8,929 bases of DNA from Dictyostelium discoideum (GCA_000004695.1 CH709161.1:1-8929), one strand, 5' to 3'. Counted from the first letter of the stretch, positions 1,176 through 8,929 are shown. The notes: generated by a model not told the origin, from the letters alone. Numbers and translations are program-made.

Positions 1176-1470
1176 AATTGCTTTTAAATTAATTTTTAAG
1201 TGACTTTTTTATAGGACTTTAAATCCACTTTTAATTTAATTTAAAGTTGCTTTAAAGGTGTAATTTTCATCGCTGTGATAATATAAAACCCAAGGCAACT
1301 GAAACACTTATTTATGATTAATTAATAAAAATAATAATAATAGAATTCAATTGCCACTGAAACAAATAAATAAAGAATTAAAATTAATTTGGTTATCTTT
1401 TTAGTTTTTTTTTTTTTAATTTTCATAATTTTTTTTTTTTTTAATTTTCATAAAATTAAAAAGCATCACT

Positions 1471-1519
1471 AAAGCCAATTTAAAGCAAATTTAAATTGAA
1501 TTTGCTTTAAATTGGCTTT
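1471..1519. repeat. Inverted repeat (hairpin) of 49 bp. The arms are perfect 21-bp sequences (aaagccaatttaaagcaaatt and aatttgctttaaattggcttt) separated by a 7-nt spacer (taaattg).
   Basis: The arms are exact reverse complements of each other. The hairpin lies 20 bp upstream of a short GC-rich island (1540-1615) inside otherwise ~90% AT DNA. Confidence 0.85.
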
Positions 1520-1779
1520 AAAAATGCATTTTTCTTCGCTTTGTAACGTAAAAATTAGCATTTTAATCGCTTTAAAAGCGAGGTCCGGATTTCGAAGCCG
1601 TTATTTAACGGATAAATATTTTAAATTTTTTTTTTGAATTTTTGTAAACTATATTAGGAATAAAAATGAAAATAAAAATAAAAAAAAAATATTCTAAAAG
1701 AATTACAAACCTTTTTAAATGGCAATGTTCTTTTTTTTTATTGGCAATGGTTTATATATATATATATATTTTTTTTTTT

Positions 1780-1805
1780 AGATTTTCTAGATTTTCTAGA
1801 TTTTA
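1780..1805. repeat. Tandem 9-bp repeat agattttct in about 2.9 copies. It contains repeated TTCTAGA motifs.
   Basis: The sequence reads agattttct agattttct agatttta. A (TA)8 microsatellite lies at 1754-1769. Confidence 0.7.
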
Positions 1806-2494
1806 CATATTATTCTTTATTGGACCTTTCTGTGAATAATTGAATTAATTCTGAACAAAAAAAGTTATTTTTAAAAAGATAGAGTTACCCCGATCAATCT
1901 TTTCGCGAATAATTTTTCATTTTTCATATTATTTTTTTTTTAAATTTTTTTCATTTATTCACAATTAAAATAAAAAATATAATAAATAAATAAATAAAAT
2001 AAATAGTATTGACAAAAAAATCAAAAATACCGGGACTCAAATAAAGGATTTATTTTTTATATGTAGTTTTTTTTTTTTTAAGTTCTTTTTTTTTTTTCAA
2101 GTTTATTTTATTTTTATATTTTCTTTATTTCTCTATAAATACAACCAAATTTAAATATACGATAGGTCTTAACAAATATTGTTTAATATTATTTAAAATT
2201 TTTGTTTTAAATAATGTGTTTTATTAAAAAAAAAAAAAAAAAAAACATATGAAAAGTGAAAAATTTTTCAAAAATAAAAAATTTTTTTTCGAAATAACTG
2301 GATTTATTCCGGGATAACTCGATCTTTTTCAAAATAACTTTATATAGAATTAATTCAATTATCCACTGATAGGTTCATTTTAATAATGAATTAATTCTAA
2401 TTTTTTTTTTTTTTTTTATAATTATTATTCGTATTTCTATAATTAAAAACATGAATTTTATTATTCTTATTATATAATTAATTTTTTAATGATT

Positions 2495-3106
2495 TCATAT
2501 TTTATTTTTGTTATTAATACTGTTTAATTTTATACGACTTGAATGAAAAGTGTTTTGTGAATTATAAATTTTTTTTTTTATTTTTCTTTTTTTTTCAATT
2601 ATTTTAATTTTTTTCAATTTTTTAAAATATATATTTTTTTTTTTTTGGCTAATAATTCCTTTCTTGAAAATTTTAACTTTTTTTGGTTTTTGAGGGGAGT
2701 CATGTTTTAGGGATCTTAGGATGATCTGTTTGTTATGTTGAATTTTGATTGGAGACAACATGGGTACAATGACATTATCTGGATGGTTTGAAAGTGTTTG
2801 AGTGACAATTGCTTGTGTATTTGATGGTGTCTGAGTGACAATTGCTGGTGGATTTGATGGTGCTTGAATAACAATGGTTGGTGTATATGATGGTGCTTGA
2901 GTAACAATGGTTGGTGGATTTGATGGTGCTATGGTAACAATGGTTGGTGGATTTGATGGTGTTTGAGAGACAATATCTGGTGGATTTAAAGTCTGAACAA
3001 AAGATGATGATGTGTTTGAAGTTGGTGGTTGTTGCAAAGCATTTGTCAAATGATGAATATTGGATATATGTTCAATAGATGACACAAGTTGACGAGCAAC
3101 ATTCAA
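2495..3106 (-). CDS. Open frame rich in Pro/Thr/Ser/Gln repeats (…QTPSNPPTIVTIAPSNPPTIVTQAPSYTPTIVIQAPSNPPAIVTQTPSN…). The coding-like part is about 2700-3106. The ~200-nt AT-rich K-rich tail down to 2495 is doubtful.
   Basis: The frame runs about 135 codons with Dictyostelium-like codons (cca, caa, att, gtt) across the 33-bp repeats. The first codon is TTG, not ATG. No in-frame ATG occurs before residue ~112. There is no AG acceptor between the upstream in-frame TAA (3131-3133) and the ORF. The minus strand here is T-poor, so all three frames are open and ORF length alone is weak evidence. Confidence 0.35.
   Translation of the reverse strand: MNVARQLVSSIEHISNIHHLTNALQQPPTSNTSSSFVQTLNPPDIVSQTPSNPPTIVTIAPSNPPTIVTQAPSYTPTIVIQAPSNPPAIVTQTPSNTQAIVTQTLSNHPDNVIVPMLSPIKIQHNKQIILRSLKHDSPQKPKKVKIFKKGIISQKKKNIYFKKLKKIKIIEKKRKIKKKIYNSQNTFHSSRIKLNSINNKNKI
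2800..2995 (-). repeat. A 33-bp tandem repeat in about 5.5 copies. On the minus strand the unit is caccatcaaatccaccaaccattgttac(t/c)ca(a/g)g(c/a), which encodes PSNPPTIVTQA-like units.
   Basis: The plus-strand units tgagtgacaattgc(t)tgtgtatttgatggtgtc, tgagtgacaattgctggtggatttgatggtgct, tgaataacaatggttggtgtatatgatggtgct, tgagtaacaatggttggtggatttgatggtgct and atggtaacaatggttggtggatttgatggtgtt are read directly in a 33-nt register. Confidence 0.85.
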
Positions 3107-3174
3107 AGAAGGATTACAGGTAACAGATTTTTAAATAACATATTGGGGTATAGTAAGTAAACCTAATTCTTTCC

Positions 3175-3384
3175 TTAATTAACTTTTAAAGGATCATCTG
3201 GAATTGCGATTGCATTAAAATTGTAATTAGTAAGATCATACCCAATTTTCTTTGTAAAAGATAATAATATCTCAACAACTTTTCTATGGTTTGATAGGTA
3301 CAAATTTGATGTAAAAGAAGTTAAATCGTTTGAATCATTTGAATCATTTGAATCATCTAAATCATTGTACTGTGGTAAAATCAT
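3175..3384 (-). CDS. Short ORF of 69 aa, MILPQYNDLDDSNDSNDSNDLTSF…HRKVVEILLSFTKKIGYDL… It is hypothetical and may be a continuation of the same decayed element.
   Basis: It has an ATG start and (DSN)3 low complexity. HRKVVEILLS…KK weakly resembles the start of a chromodomain (..R.VEKIL…KG…YLVKW), but the remaining positions do not fit. It lies on the same strand as 3470-3706, 85 nt downstream, in another frame. Confidence 0.25.
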   Translation of the reverse strand: MILPQYNDLDDSNDSNDSNDLTSFTSNLYLSNHRKVVEILLSFTKKIGYDLTNYNFNAIAIPDDPLKVN

Positions 3385-3469
3385 GGGTTCTTTCCTTTGC
3401 TTGATTATAATGAACTAATTTATTTGGTCCAAGACATATCGGTTTTTTGTTTGTTATTAATAACATCCT

Positions 3470-3706
3470 CTAGAAATTGTATCCTATAGGTTTTTTATTG
3501 TTTTGATCATCATTATGTATTTCAATAATCTTGTTCTTTACCAATGTTTTCTTTTTATTTAATGTTTCTAATAAAAACACTGTATCACCAATTTTAAATT
3601 GTTTTTTTGTTGATTTTGATGACCAATTGTTTTTATATTTTTCAATATTTTTAAGAATAATTTCTTGTCTTTGTTTATATGATATATCTGGTATACTAAC
3701 TAACAT
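3470..3706 (-). CDS. Short ORF of 78 aa, MLVSIPDISYKQRQEIILKNIEKYKNNWSSKSTKKQFKIGDTVFLL… It may be a degenerate fragment of the C-terminus of a retrotransposon integrase.
   Basis: It has an ATG in an aaaaATG context. The pattern Q.RQ…KY.N…K.F.IGD.V.LL resembles the conserved '…QKKYADRKRR.VEF.VGDKVLL' block that follows the catalytic core of Ty3/gypsy-type integrases. It ends with a TAG, which is rare in Dictyostelium. This is by-eye similarity only. Confidence 0.35.
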   Translation of the reverse strand: MLVSIPDISYKQRQEIILKNIEKYKNNWSSKSTKKQFKIGDTVFLLETLNKKKTLVKNKIIEIHNDDQNNKKPIGYNF

Positions 3707-4199
3707 TTTTCTTCTATATTTACATGAAATCCATTATCTAATGTAGCTGTTTGAAATAATAATAATAACTGCATTTGCATTATTTGACCCTTCAATTATT
3801 ATTGTTAAAATTTCGATTTTACAAAATTATAATTTAAATGTTAGAGTAAGTTTTTTTTTTAAAAAAAAAAAAAATAATAATAATTAATATAAATAACAAA
3901 AAAAAAAAAAAAAAAAAGAAATAATAAAAAGTTATCTAATTTTCATTTTTTATTTTTTTTTTATAATTTCAAAAAAAAAAAAAAAAGAGATGGGAAACAA
4001 TTTATAAAAAAAATTTTTCCGATTGCTTGACAAGGTGACATGTCGATATCTCTGTGTTTTCTATAATTATATACTTCCAAGGCTAATTCTAAATAAGAGC
4101 AAATTGTTTGAGTTTTACATATATTTTCACTGTCATTACATTAGGTAAATAAATGATAGTAATTTAAAAAATATAGGGTGTATATTAGAAGAGGGTACT

Positions 4200-6343
4200 T
4201 ACTCTTCCTTATGAAAAAGTAGTCCAATACCACGCCAAAAACCTAGCTGCTCAAAGGCTACAATCCGCCCAGCAAGTCAACCTCCATACCACCAAAAGAC
4301 TATTTGAAGATACTGACGATCTCACTCAATCCCTCAAGCAAACATTAACAAAGAAGCGTAAGGAGCTAGACCAAGCACTCAACCACACCCAAAAAGAACT
4401 ACAGGAGCTAAGAAAATCACATGATAGTACGCAGAAAATGGCACAAAAGATCACTTAGAGATGTACTCTTAATGAAGAACTCGCCAAAGAGCTCCTTAAC
4501 TAAACCAAGCACAATAAATATACCATCGAAAGGATTATACCCGCTAGGCTAGATGCGCCAGCAACGCCTCAAAGAGGTTACTCAACAAATAAAACACGCA
4601 CAAGCAAAACAGATCGAAGTAACAAAGGGAATTCAAGAATGATCCCAGCAAATAAAACAGCTTCAAGCCCAAATTGATGGAATAAACAAGCAATACCAGC
4701 CTGCTAGTCAAACTAGGCCGCTAGAAGAAGTGGAGCGTGAGCAGCAAGCACTTGAAGCGAAACTACAGCAACTCCTCAACGATTTTAGGACAAAAAAAAC
4801 ACAGCTTGAGCAAGCCCAGAACCTAGCTCAAAAGGCCCAAGCAGATTTAGGGCAAGAAATAGCGCAAGAAAAAGCCAAACAAGAGCAATTGGAGGCGATC
4901 GAGAAAGAGCTAAAGGAACGCATTGAAGAAGGTAAAGTACTCAATGAGCAGGAACAAGAAGCTTGATTGATCAACAGCGCACCCCCAGCTGTTCATAGAT
5001 CTCAAAGCGCCCGAAGTACCGCATTGACTGAAAAAAAGAAAAGCTCTCTTGCATCGAAGAAAAGACGATCCGAGGCAGCTAGCCCATATGCGGCAACAGC
5101 AGCACCTTAACCTCAAAGAGAGGATGATCGCGCTTCAAAATGCACAAACCATGCGTGAGCAAGCAGCTAGAAGAAAGGTAGAGTTTACTAACTCTAACGC
5201 TTCTTGCTGTAAAACAAGAAGTACACCAATCGCAGCAAACATGAGAGCAAGAAAACAAACGCATCATCGAAGAGAATATTCAGGGTATAGAAGCGCTCAC
5301 CAAAGAGCCCCACCAGGATAAAGAAAGGGAGAGCAGAAGAGACCAAGAAGATGTAAAAAATACAAAGAGAAAACAGGAGTGGGAAAACAGGGCATGGTAT
5401 GTAAATTATGGGATTGGGTCAAAGAAAATCCCATTACCGCAACTATTGTAGGGATTCTGGCTGTGGGTGCATTGGTGTGTCTGGTTTCTTATGTGGCCCT
5501 ACCATTATTAAAAAGCAGCATCGCGTCAACGGGAGCTGGTGGCTTTTTTTGGTGGTTGTTTTCAAACAAAACCCGGCTTATCTGTCTTTGGCTCATTTGC
5601 TGGTAGATGGTTAAACAATAATCTACAACGGATTAATAATTGGGGCAATGGAAAAGGCTGGAAAACAAATGATGAGCTAAAAGCACCTTCCAAGAAAGAA
5701 TTTTAGCATCTAAAAACCAACTTGGATAGGAACTCCAAGGGATACAACGTGATCTGCAAGAGGCGAAAAGAAAGTAAATAGAGGAACGTGAAAAGGAAGC
5801 AGAAAAACCCGAGCAAGAGCAGGAAGAAGTTTCAGGGTAATAGTTAAACATCCTCGCTCAGCAATTCAATGCTACTTCTATGCAGCATGAGCCAATGCAA
5901 AACGTGACTAATCTGACCAAGCAGGCACAGGAATTGCTAAAACAATGGGATACAAATACGATGACCCTTCTCTATTCATGCAAAGCAGTGTTTTGCTAGA
6001 TCAGATGGATCAGCAGATAGCGCAAGTGGAGGAAGCTAAAGAAGAGGTCTTTTCTGGTGAATTTAAAGGGAATTTACCAAATCAGAAAAGCGGCCCCGCA
6101 ATCTCAACTCGATACACTCATACAAGCCAAAGAGCAGCTATATCAAAGATCATTCGAGATACGCAACAAGAAGCCATGGTATTTGAGCAAGACTTTGAAA
6201 AAATAACAAAGAAGCTCCATGATTTCTTATCCAGTCATGAGTACGTCCAAGAAGAATTTAAACCAACTACAACTGAGCAGCATGAACCTATCCTCACTAG
6301 ACCTACCATCGACTTGACAAACTCCCTCTCCCTAAGGCTTTAG
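4200..6343 (+). pseudogene. Decayed coding sequence of 2.1 kb with coiled-coil character (rich in Q/E/K/A/L). It is a degenerate gene or a retroelement ORF1/gag-like remnant. It includes a hydrophobic segment at 5379-5606 that looks like a transmembrane region, and one uninterrupted 132-codon stretch at 5945-6343.
   Basis: GC content rises abruptly at about 4195. The plus strand is A/C-rich and T-poor, so chance stops should be rare, yet TAG, TAA and TGA interrupt every plus frame about every 20-40 codons between 4200 and 4730. Surviving segments read as heptad-like text, for example MEREQQALEAKLQQLLNDFRTKKTQLEQAQNLAQKAQADLGQEIAQEKAKQEQLEAIEKELKERIEEGK. Internal modules such as 'caagcact.a.c…aactacag.a.ct' are repeated. 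The codons differ from the neighbouring host gene (ctg, gcc, ggg). Confidence 0.5.
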
Positions 6344-6498
6344 AAGAAACAATTATGCTGCTTGCCGAAAAGATGAGCTATAATGGTTTAAAATTGGATT
6401 TTAAACAAGCCAAGCAATTTGAATTTCCCAAATATTTAAGATAATTTTTTAGAATGTTCTAGAACATGAGAAGAATAAAAAATTTTCGAAAGAAAAGT

Positions 6499-6601
6499 AA
6501 AAATTTCGAACCGGCACAATGACGCGATCATTGCGCAAGGTCGAAAAACTGAAAAATTCCGAACCGACACTATGCACAAAGTTGTGAAGGGTCGAAAACT
6601 C
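6499..6601. repeat. Tandem duplication of a ~50-bp block inside the ITR-like region. Copy 1 (6499-6551) is aaaaatttcgaaccggcacaatgacgcgatcattgcgcaaggtcgaaaaactg. Copy 2 (6552-6601) is aaaaattccgaaccgacactatgcacaaagttgtgaagggtcgaaaactc.
   Basis: The two copies are about 70% identical and directly adjacent. Each begins with aaaa(a)tt(t/c)cgaaccg and ends with ggtcgaaaa(a)ct. Copy 1 contains a small hairpin, cacaatga-cgcga-tcattgcg. Confidence 0.8.
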
Positions 6602-6699
6602 TTATTTTTTTGAGTTTTGCGAAATTTTTAAGAAAATAAAAACGTATAAATAGTGGCACTAAAAACTAAAAACAATTTGATTTATGGAATTCCGACTAA

Positions 6700-6715
6700 G
6701 GGCGGGTGGGATGGG
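6700..6715 (+). other. G-quadruplex motif GGGcGGGtGGGatGGG at the inner edge of the ITR-like region. It lies 5 bp from a (TA)9 tract (6721-6738) and 45 bp from the YR stop.
   Basis: Four G3 runs with 1-2-nt loops are read directly. The motif is conspicuous in DNA that is otherwise about 80% AT. Confidence 0.7.
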
Positions 6716-6760
6716 ACTAATATATATATATATATTTAATATAAAATATAATTTAATAAA

Positions 6761-7680
6761 TTAAATGATTCTTTTATCGTAGAAGGTATCTACAGTATCA
6801 TTTGATTTCCAACGACCCATCTTCTTGACAACATGGAACGGAACGTTATTGGACAACAGCAGAGAAGCCATAGCGGAACGGGTAGAGTGAGATTTGAACT
6901 TGACAATATCAATGCCTGACTTTGAGAGCGTTGATAATACAATTGAGTTAATATCATTAACTTGGAGCGGTTCACCCTCATTCTTAATAAAGACAGAGTC
7001 ACCCGAATGGGGCTTTCTTCTTCCTTTTGAGGTTCTAAGGTATGTTGCAAGGTGGCGAACAGGGCATACTTGAGAGTTTGTATCATCTATCGAAGTTAAT
7101 TCTAAGATTGAAACAACACCACTTCTTTGTTCTTTAGCATTAATAACTGGACCTTTGATTGAGTCAGGAGTAATAATGAGACCTTTGAACGACCACTTCA
7201 CCAAGTCTGATGATCTTGGTAAACCAAACATTTTACAGAGTACAAGTGTCTTGTTTAATAGTGCAGTGTATGTGTACTTAGGGATGACTTTTATAGTAGA
7301 TAAGTGCTTGAATACTTGGTTTGCATCCCATATCTCTTTATACTTTGCTGATGAAGGACGCAACTTGTGAATACCAGTCATAATTCTTGTGATGAATGGA
7401 TCATTAACAATATCAGTTTGATTCTTAAGGAGTAACAACTGATTCAACATAGATCGATGACCATTAATTGTTGAGAAGGCTAACGGAGGTTGTGCTTGAA
7501 CAGATGTGTAAGATAATCCATGAAAACAACTAAGGTAATGTTTGCTGGATTCAAAGAGTTTAAAGTACAGAAATTGCGGAATCTTGTATAACTGGAGCTA
7601 TATACTTTGAGAGTTGAAGGTTCCCATGACTTCATTAACAGCTCAGCTGTTTTTGTATTTGTTGTACGAGCGAAGGACAT
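6761..7680 (-). CDS. Tyrosine recombinase of about 305 aa (DIRS/Ngaro/Cre-like). The N-terminal core-binding-like domain is MSFARTTNTKTAELLMKSWEPSTLKVYSSSYTRFRNFCTLNSLNPANITLVVFMDYLTHLFKHNL… and the catalytic domain is …AFSTINGHRSMLNQLL……GLPRSSDLVKW……KFKSHSTRSAMASLLLSNNVPFHVVKKMGRWKSNDTVDTFYDKRII. The two halves are in different frames, consistent with a 1-nt frameshift near 7485.
   Basis: The ATG is at 7680-7678. The N-terminal signature SW…STLKVY…RF.NFC…P…V.F..YL.HLF is present. The catalytic residues follow in order: Arg (LPRSSDL), HxxR (HSTR), W in the position of the second His (GRWKS) and the Tyr nucleophile (TFYDKR). Frame A stops at TAG 7480-7482. Frame B is open from at least 7560 and carries the rest. 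A single-nucleotide insertion at about 7484-7486 would fuse them as …THLFKHNL.LAFSTINGHRS…. Confidence 0.85.
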
Positions 7681-8929
7681 TACATGAGATTGGAAAGTTG
7701 AATAATCCCGAGCTTCCAACGTTGTTGAATCTGGATTGGTATCGACTCTACTGATTGTTTGGTCAATACTTCTTGGAATGTTCCCAGTACTTGAGGAAAC
7801 ATGTGGCGATGATGACGAGGAACTTGAGCTTGAATCATCGGATACCAAGTTGCTGATCTCCAGATTGGGAAGATCAGTATTATAGAAACCTTCTTCGAAC
7901 TGGATGAGTTCATCTTCTCCAGGATAGAAGGCAAAAGAATGGGTGGTGGAAAGGCCAAACATTGCTTCCATTGACTCTAATCGAGGTGGAGTGCATTCAT
8001 TCTGATTGTTGAGTAGTTGTTCGTTTGATGGTTGAGGTGAGATGCGAACAGATCCATCTGTATTTGACCGAAGTGAAGTTGGATGCGATTGAACACTTCC
8101 TTCTTCAGTTCCCAGTTGTAACTCTTGATTACTCTGGACGATGATTTGTGATTCATCTCTGAAAGACGGCTGAGGTGGTCGGCTTTTACATTGAATCCTG
8201 GAATATGCTCTCCAATCAAGTTCACTTTCTTTTTGAGGCATTGTTTCCATAGTTGTTCGAACAGAACTGAGAGATCTTGTATTTGACCACCCTGCCGATT
8301 GATGTAAGAGAGAGTGGCAGTGTTGTCGGTTTGAATCTTCAGCTTGCAGTTGTTCAGTTTCCGACATAGCGCTTGATAGGCCATTAGCAGTGCGAGCATT
8401 TCTCGACGATTTGATGACATGTTTGATTGAGTTGTTGACCACTGGAATGACCAAGTTTTGATTACCTTGTTTCCTTTCTTGAGAGTGGCACCTGCACCCG
8501 ATTCCGAGGCATCGGTTGTAAGAACATAGTCGTAACTTGGAAACAGACTGATTTCTTTTCCATTCCATTGGTTTAGAACTGTTAACCAATGTGAAATCTC
8601 TGACTTGACCTCTTGAGGAATGGGGGACGATTGATCCCAATCTCCATTGGCTAGAGTCAGACACTGAGAGTGAAACTTGTTTGTTCGACGAGTGTAAAGT
8701 CTGAATGGGATGACTGCATCTTTCAGTGCAATTAGCTTTCCTTTTAAACCAGCAAGCTTTCTTGGGGAGCAACAATCTAGTTTTAAAAAGTTTCTTATTT
8801 CTTTGATGACACTTTTCTTCTTTTCTTTGGGAACAAGAAGCTTCATTGATACCGAATCGATTTGTAATCCGAGAAACGTAATTGATTGAGTTGGTTCGAG
8901 AACGCTCTTTTCTAGGTTTAACTTGAGTA
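7680..8929 (-). CDS. Retroelement pol fragment, incomplete at the 5' end. It contains the RT C-terminal/thumb region (…ITFLGLQIDSVSMKLLVPKEKKKSVIKEIRNFLKLDCCSPRKLAGLKGKLIALKDAVIP…), RNase H (…VLTTDASESGAGATL…REMLALL…IQTDNTATLSYINRQGG…HIPGFNVKADHLSRL…) and a conserved post-RH segment (…IQMDLFASHLNHQTNNYST…[TAG]SQWKQCLAFPPPILLPSILEKM…ILIFPIWRSATWYP…). An in-frame TAG lies at 7977-7979 and the terminal TAA at 7680-7682.
   Basis: One frame (coordinate mod 3 = 2) is open from the window edge to 7977 and again from 7976 to 7683. The RNase H catalytic motifs D, E, D and H..D are all present in order. The frame extends upstream of the listed Met to 8929, giving LKLNLEKSVLEPTQSITFLGLQIDSVS, which is the RT region just C-terminal to the YxDD box. 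The TAG falls inside the conserved '…D[A/x]…W……AFPP' block. Confidence 0.85.

Follow-up and report, generated by a model that had tools for sequence, protein, structure and literature searches.

The 8,929-nucleotide stretch of Dictyostelium discoideum DNA analysed here (CH709161.1:1-8929; hereafter the window) almost certainly carries, on its minus strand from 8929 to 6417, a degenerate and immobile genomic copy of the retrotransposon DIRS-1 in its published architecture. DIRS-1 is the founding tyrosine-recombinase retrotransposon of D. discoideum and was reportedly described by Cappello et al. in 1985; its reference sequence is GenBank M11339, and about 200-300 DIRS-1 fragments have been reported from the genome of D. 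discoideum. The window holds the 3' half of the element, which is cut by the window edge at 8929. Its layout is that published for DIRS-1, with reverse transcriptase (RT), RNase H (RH) and a methyltransferase-like domain (MT) in one open reading frame (ORF III, or pol) and an overlapping second frame (ORF II) ending in the tyrosine recombinase (YR), and it is not Ngaro-like. The element is thus an already known retrotransposon in a known architecture, present as a damaged fragment, and no new architecture is involved.

The assignment rests on comparison with further DIRS-1 sequences on the contigs L001, L002, L003, L004 (two copies) and L005, the last from D. firmibasis. With 97% identity over 100% of its length (E = 2.8e-266), the pol translation of the window aligns with P0001, a 608-residue D. 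discoideum protein bearing the Pfam domains RVT_1, RT_RNaseH, RT_RNaseH_2 and Dam. It is 87% identical to a D. firmibasis protein, and more than 100 additional Dictyostelium gene models match it. At the DNA level, positions 8926-6764 share 92-93% identity with four DIRS-1 copies of D. discoideum and 80% with the copy from D. firmibasis, and a D. discoideum contig matches the flank at 1278-6414 with 95-98% identity. Pfam domains on the minus strand are co-oriented and follow one another as RT_RNaseH (8537-8295), Dam (8117-7824) and Phage_integrase (7027-6779), which is the order RT-(RH)-MT-YR. Several points weigh against the assignment. The flanking host DNA departs by 2-5% from the matching D. 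discoideum contig, and only the 3' ~2.5 kb of the element lies inside the window, so that any GAG, RT core or left repeat of this copy would lie beyond 8929. The structural model of the methyltransferase-like domain described below was built from the intact P0001 segment (5 differences in 151 residues) and not from the window's interrupted sequence, and transcription of the window copy is putative.

The methyltransferase-like domain of pol

When the three minus-strand frames of 6300-8929 were translated, the pol frame, whose first codon lies at 8927, was found to start in the RT thumb (LKLNLEKSVLEPTQSITFLGLQIDS...), to pass through RNase H and to end at the natural ORF III stop (7682-7680), where P0001 and P0002 end likewise (...LSNLM). 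A TAG at 7977-7979 is its sole internal stop. The RT in the window is the C-terminal part alone (thumb/connection, 8538-8927), recognised through its alignment to P0001 from residue ~194 onward at 97% identity. The RNase H domain (8193-8537) was matched by Pfam RT_RNaseH (E = 1.6e-10), RT_RNaseH_2 (E = 3.9e-8) and RNase_H (E = 2e-4), and its motifs TTDAS (8519-8505), RREMLA (8408-8391), QTDNT (8333-8319) and KADHLSR (8186-8166) can be read in the translation. Downstream of RNase H the frame continues as ...GQIQMDLFAS...LD*SQWKQCLAFPPPILLPSILE...LIFPIWRSATWYP.... An earlier, sequence-only reading of this DNA had described on the minus strand a continuous pol running from the RT thumb through RNase H into a 'DLFAS...IFPIW' segment, and the translation confirms that these parts lie in one frame, with the single TAG inside.

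The 'DLFAS...AFPP...IFPIW' block is the methyltransferase-like domain of DIRS elements (7683-8135, minus strand). It coincides exactly with a match of the Pfam family Dam (PF05869, DNA N-6-adenine-methyltransferase) to residues 271-368 of the window's pol (8117-7824; E = 6.1e-9, 36.2 bits against a gathering cut-off of 28.1), with a weak match to the PCIF1_WW family at the same place. The same Dam assignment is precomputed for P0002 and for the 97% identical P0001. In the window the motifs of the block lie at 8057-8040 (MDLFAS), 7955-7941 (AFPPP) and 7877-7860 (LIFPIW); MDLFAS, AFPP/AHPP and LIxPxW are invariant in relatives of ~30% identity, and a profile of the block recovers 59 further proteins. 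Sequence searches of PDB with the segment alone and with a five-sequence profile gave no significant match, and the relationship therefore had to be drawn from Pfam together with fold comparison. An AlphaFold2 model of the homologous P0001 segment (151 residues; 53 aligned sequences) reached a pLDDT of 90.8 and a pTM of 0.86, and in fold comparison this predicted model resembles the PCIF1/N6-adenine-methyltransferase fold.

The sequence-only reading had reported no detectable methyltransferase-like domain, had seen no room for one, and had likened the layout to Ngaro and PAT elements, so that the copy would represent a methyltransferase-less DIRS-like variant of the order RT-RH-'DUF'-YR. This interpretation draws on the short distance between the RNase H and YR domains, ~170 codons, on the empty plain PDB search with the segment, and on motifs from which the methyltransferase nature is not evident. 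We nevertheless consider it extremely improbable. The Dam match lies above the curated cut-off and recurs as the same family in P0001 and P0002, so that the domain said to be missing is present. Detection of such a domain is also the outcome that the sequence-only reading had itself named as refuting its claim. The fragments that encode it in DIRS1-like elements measure 300-320 bp, that is, ~100 codons (PMC3266345), a length for which the available space suffices. PAT elements also have the domain, and Ngaro and VIPER alone are without it (PMC3266345; PMC7192593). The broader diagnosis of a defective DIRS-like YR retrotransposon stands as regards the DIRS group, the tyrosine recombinase, the DIRS-1-type terminal repeat and the absence of an integrase, but not as regards a methyltransferase-less Ngaro/PAT-like variant. 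The main value of the present analysis is this correction: the apparent methyltransferase-less DIRS variant is an artefact of missing, by eye, a very short and divergent PCIF1/Dam-like domain.

Comparison with other groups leads to the same placement. Ngaro and VIPER share with the window RT-RH, a tyrosine recombinase and the lack of a DDE integrase, but they have no methyltransferase domain, their ORFs mostly do not overlap, and the repeats of Ngaro are split direct ones, whereas the window has the domain, the overlap and a DIRS-1 long terminal repeat (LTR). Thus, of the Ngaro traits, neither the missing methyltransferase domain nor the missing overlap is found here. PAT-like elements share the whole domain set RT-RH-MT-YR but are bounded by split direct repeats, whereas the DIRS-1 copies related to the window have inverted repeats and an internal complementary region (ICR). 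The rve integrase and direct LTRs of Ty3/gypsy elements do not describe the window either, which gave no rve match and has a YR instead.

The D. discoideum DIRS-1 reference pol is likewise RT-RH-MT (PMC3266345; PMC7192593; PMC3950715), and its methyltransferase-like domain has been placed in the PCIF1 clade and considered catalytically inactive (Iyer et al., PMC4738411). The structural likeness to PCIF1 agrees independently with that published, sequence-based proposal and adds no new biology. In contrast to PCIF1/CAPAM, the cap-specific adenosine N6-methyltransferase (PDB 6irx), the DIRS domain is a minimal core of ~150 residues within a polyprotein. Where PCIF1/CAPAM has the catalytic motif (D/N)PP(Y/F), the window reads F-P-P-P and its relatives A-F-P-P-Y/F, and the catalytic D/N is thus missing; the F-P-P-P of the window would be consistent, by inference from the motif only, with an inactive domain.

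ORF II and the tyrosine recombinase

In the published scheme, ORF III encodes RT, RNase H and the short methyltransferase-like domain, and ORF II is read in another frame through the RH-MT region and ends in the tyrosine recombinase; the ICR and the right inverted repeat with its heat-shock element lie downstream of ORF II. The window follows this scheme. The N-terminal part of ORF II is open from the window edge (8928-7480, minus strand; 482 codons), overlaps RH and MT, and ends at a TAG (7482-7480) that is created by a frameshift. The frame thus overlaps the whole RH-MT region and is not, as had been proposed, a separate YR ORF that follows pol. Matches to Phage_int_SAM_5/4 mark a SAM-like core-binding domain at 7641-7433. 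Motifs of tyrosine recombinases lie in the third frame, which takes over at ~7489 and ends with a TAA at 6763-6761; this C-terminal part of ORF II (6764-7489) holds the catalytic domain, matched by Pfam Phage_integrase (PF00589) at 7027-6779 (E = 9.1e-10, 39 bits against a cut-off of 27.1).

The recombinase motifs read from the translation are LPRSSDL (7222-7202), HSTR (6889-6872), GRW (6817-6803) and DTFYDK with its Tyr (6790-6773). HSTR, GRW and the Tyr are intact, and PRSSDL is, only by inspection, the putative Arg I. The Phage_integrase match and the SAM-like N-terminal domains uphold the recombinase of the sequence-only reading. Its statement that no integrase is present also holds, in that Pfam found no DDE (rve) integrase in any translated frame of the window. 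A sequence search of PDB with the YR gave no significant match, and exact-sequence look-ups of the window's 229-residue YR ORF and of P0101 found no contig.

The ORF II frame is open over 712 codons in L001 and over 740 codons in L005, a copy of only 80% DNA identity. Furthermore, L005 (5272-7927) and L001 (5995-8567) each keep an intact pol frame of 415 codons together with the intact ORF II frame that overlaps it. Since both frames are kept in D. firmibasis at 80% DNA identity, the dual-coding overlap of ~1.2 kb is conserved between the species. An overlap of ORF II and ORF III has been described for DIRS-1 (PMC3266345; PMC3950715).

Terminal structures, lesions and fate of the copy

Set beside DIRS-1 as described in the literature (PMC3266345, PMC3950715, PMC7192593), the window has in common the protein sequences (97% identity to the D. 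discoideum pol), the RT-RH-MT pol, the overlapping ORF II/YR, what remains of the ICR sequence and, as far as the right repeat shows, the inverted LTR with a heat-shock element. It departs from DIRS-1 only by damage, namely a nonsense codon, a frameshift, the loss of a codon, an 83-nt deletion across the end of the YR and the ICR, and a shortened right LTR. These lesions, at least five in number and specific to the window, were called against five other copies (L001, L003, both of L004, and L005), to which LTR copies and the L002 copy were added.

The TAG at 7977-7979 replaces a TGG (Trp) codon of the methyltransferase-like domain; the five other copies all read TGG here, and P0001 and P0002 have W, so that the stop is specific to this copy. 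In the core-binding domain of ORF II, one A is missing from a run of three (7490-7491, AAA to AA), the window reading CACAACC (7494-7488) and three D. discoideum copies CACAAACC; P0022 and P0101 read LFKHKPPLAFST at this site. An in-frame loss of TTC at 8195-8196, where all five other copies have TTCTTC and P0001 and P0002 have GFFNVK, changes GFFNVKADH of pol to GFNVKADH and takes one Leu from ORF II.

The 83-nt deletion has its junction at 6763/6764, with a microhomology of ATT, as seen in alignments to the five copies and to L002. With it the YR has lost its 15 final codons (GEKSGGFLNTVVQIS) and its stop codon, and the ICR has lost all 33 nt that complement the left LTR end as well as ~17 nt of those that complement the right LTR end; the junction generates the TAA at 6763-6761. 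Nearly half of the ICR is lost in this way, including the whole left-LTR-complementary part, and an ICR remnant of 46 nt is left (6718-6763, minus strand), which matches L001 8171-8216. In DIRS-1 the ICR consists of 33 + 55 nt (88 nt), is complementary to both repeat ends and is, as experiments have shown, indispensable for retrotransposition (PMC7192593). The ICR of L001 matches these two parts: as inverted repeats, the left LTR end pairs with 8129-8162 and the right one with 8154-8216. A search for such complementarity between ICR and LTR end in the window found none, since the 83-nt deletion and the missing LTR end leave the remnant without a partner. Judged by its sequence, the window ICR is homologous to that of intact copies, which marks the element as a damaged member of the family and not as a non-member. 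Because the ICR is essential and is damaged here, the copy is dead whatever the state of its ORFs.

The right inverted terminal repeat keeps 301 nt (6417-6717, minus strand), 97% identical to L002 2697-2997. The LTR of L002 runs on for 79 nt, to 3076, and the window LTR is thus cut at 6417 with its last ~79 nt missing; at the truncation point all other copies read on AAATAAATGTTATTCAT..., and they continue AAATAAATGTTATTC... past the point where the window diverges. The element therefore ends at 6417, where the alignments end, and not at 6390 as first given. In the related copy L001 the element lies between inverted copies of the same repeat (93% over 210 nt); the left repeat of the window copy lies beyond the edge. 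A pattern match placed the heat-shock element TTCTAGAACATTC at 6464-6452 within the DIRS-1 LTR, in agreement with the sequence-only reading, and every aligned LTR copy from D. discoideum has conserved it. Right-LTR promoter activity and a heat-shock-induced E1 antisense transcript of 900 nt have been described for DIRS-1 (PMC3950715). A scan of the LTR for bacterial-type promoters and terminators was empty, a result of no relevance to a eukaryote. The right LTR also holds internal direct repeats of ~50 nt (TTCGACC...GTGTCGGTTCGGAATTTTT) at 6499-6521/6552-6574 and 6531-6547/6582-6598. Such units are variably present in L001, L003 and L004, so that LTR length differs among copies.

The number and kind of the lesions bear on whether the copy is damaged at all. 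The sequence-only reading correctly saw the TAG and a 1-nt frameshift near 7485, which the alignments place at 7491-7490, but its count of exactly two omits the TTC loss near 8196, the deletion at 6764/6763 and the truncated LTR at 6417, and its suggestion of recent inactivation, or of sequencing errors in an active copy, is not supported. An active, intact DIRS-1 copy seen through sequencing or assembly errors could account for a single substitution such as TGG to TAG and for a 1-nt loss in a run of A, which is a typical error type. It is a poor account of an 83-nt deletion with microhomology, of a clean loss of one 3-nt codon and of a missing LTR terminus of 79 nt, all of which are atypical of read errors. 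Moreover, the window copy differs by substitutions at 7-8% from four other D. discoideum copies, and its LTR adjoins unrelated DNA which, up to 6414, shows synteny with another assembly. We regard errors in an active copy as very improbable, and a degenerate DIRS-1 copy is the reading retained.

According to the literature, an intact DIRS-1 replicates in a cycle in which the mRNA is reverse-transcribed, the missing ends are restored as the repeat ends pair with the ICR, and the YR inserts a circular double-stranded form, preferentially into other DIRS-1 copies. The window copy cannot complete this cycle: pol is interrupted by the nonsense codon in its methyltransferase-like domain, ORF II is frameshifted and has lost its C-terminal end, the half of the ICR that belongs to the left end is deleted, and the right repeat is without the terminal ~79 nt that should pair with the ICR. 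We infer that the fragment is immobile and that, at most, antisense RNA driven by the LTR and inducible by heat shock, or small RNAs, could be templated by it.

Surroundings of the element in the window

The window is AT-rich, with a GC content of 0.15-0.20 in its non-coding parts and a GC-richer stretch from ~4200 to the right edge. Next to the truncated DIRS-1 LTR, at 6416/6417, ends a 2.2-kb block (4200-6414, plus strand) whose GC content of 0.41-0.45 stands out beside neighbouring DNA of 0.15-0.20. The block carries A-rich ORFs that encode K/E/Q-rich, coiled-coil-like sequence as well as a single hydrophobic segment (5379-5606). Frameshifts disrupt these ORFs in the window, and they do so too in the D. 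discoideum contig L002 (8197-10433), which is 97% identical. The block matched no Pfam family; in two very large protein libraries it had no homologue except the same locus (P0121), and blastn and tblastx revealed no similarity to DIRS/Skipper-rich loci. An origin as DIRS-1 ORF I in opposite orientation was rejected, as L003 and L004 hold DIRS-1 5' parts and gave no match. The block may be a pseudogene or the remnant of an element. It is conceivable, if improbable, that it is what is left of an undescribed low-copy mobile element, or of a captured gene, whose arrival truncated the DIRS-1 copy, and that the dead copy might, separately, feed heat-shock-inducible antisense RNA into RrpC/AgnA silencing.

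Scans of the window for Rfam families and for tRNAs found nothing. To the left of the block, the window holds intergenic AT-rich DNA as well as a host ORF that is read from the minus strand and contains 33-nt repeats. In this ORF (2495-3106), positions 2770-2987 form a 33/66-nt tandem repeat (6.3 copies, 82% matches) that encodes the PSNPPTIVTQA-type repeats of the host protein, and the region belongs to a hypothetical gene model of 567 residues in the syntenic part of L002 (3065-7872). A 78-residue ORF on the minus strand (3470-3706) has an FKIGDTVFL motif reminiscent of the SH3-like fold of integrase C-termini; it gave no significant Pfam match and is probably part of the host gene model seen in L002. 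Finally, a 12-nt tandem repeat, ATTTTAAAGGTA, occurs in 16.7 copies at 977-1175, in an AT-rich intergenic region.

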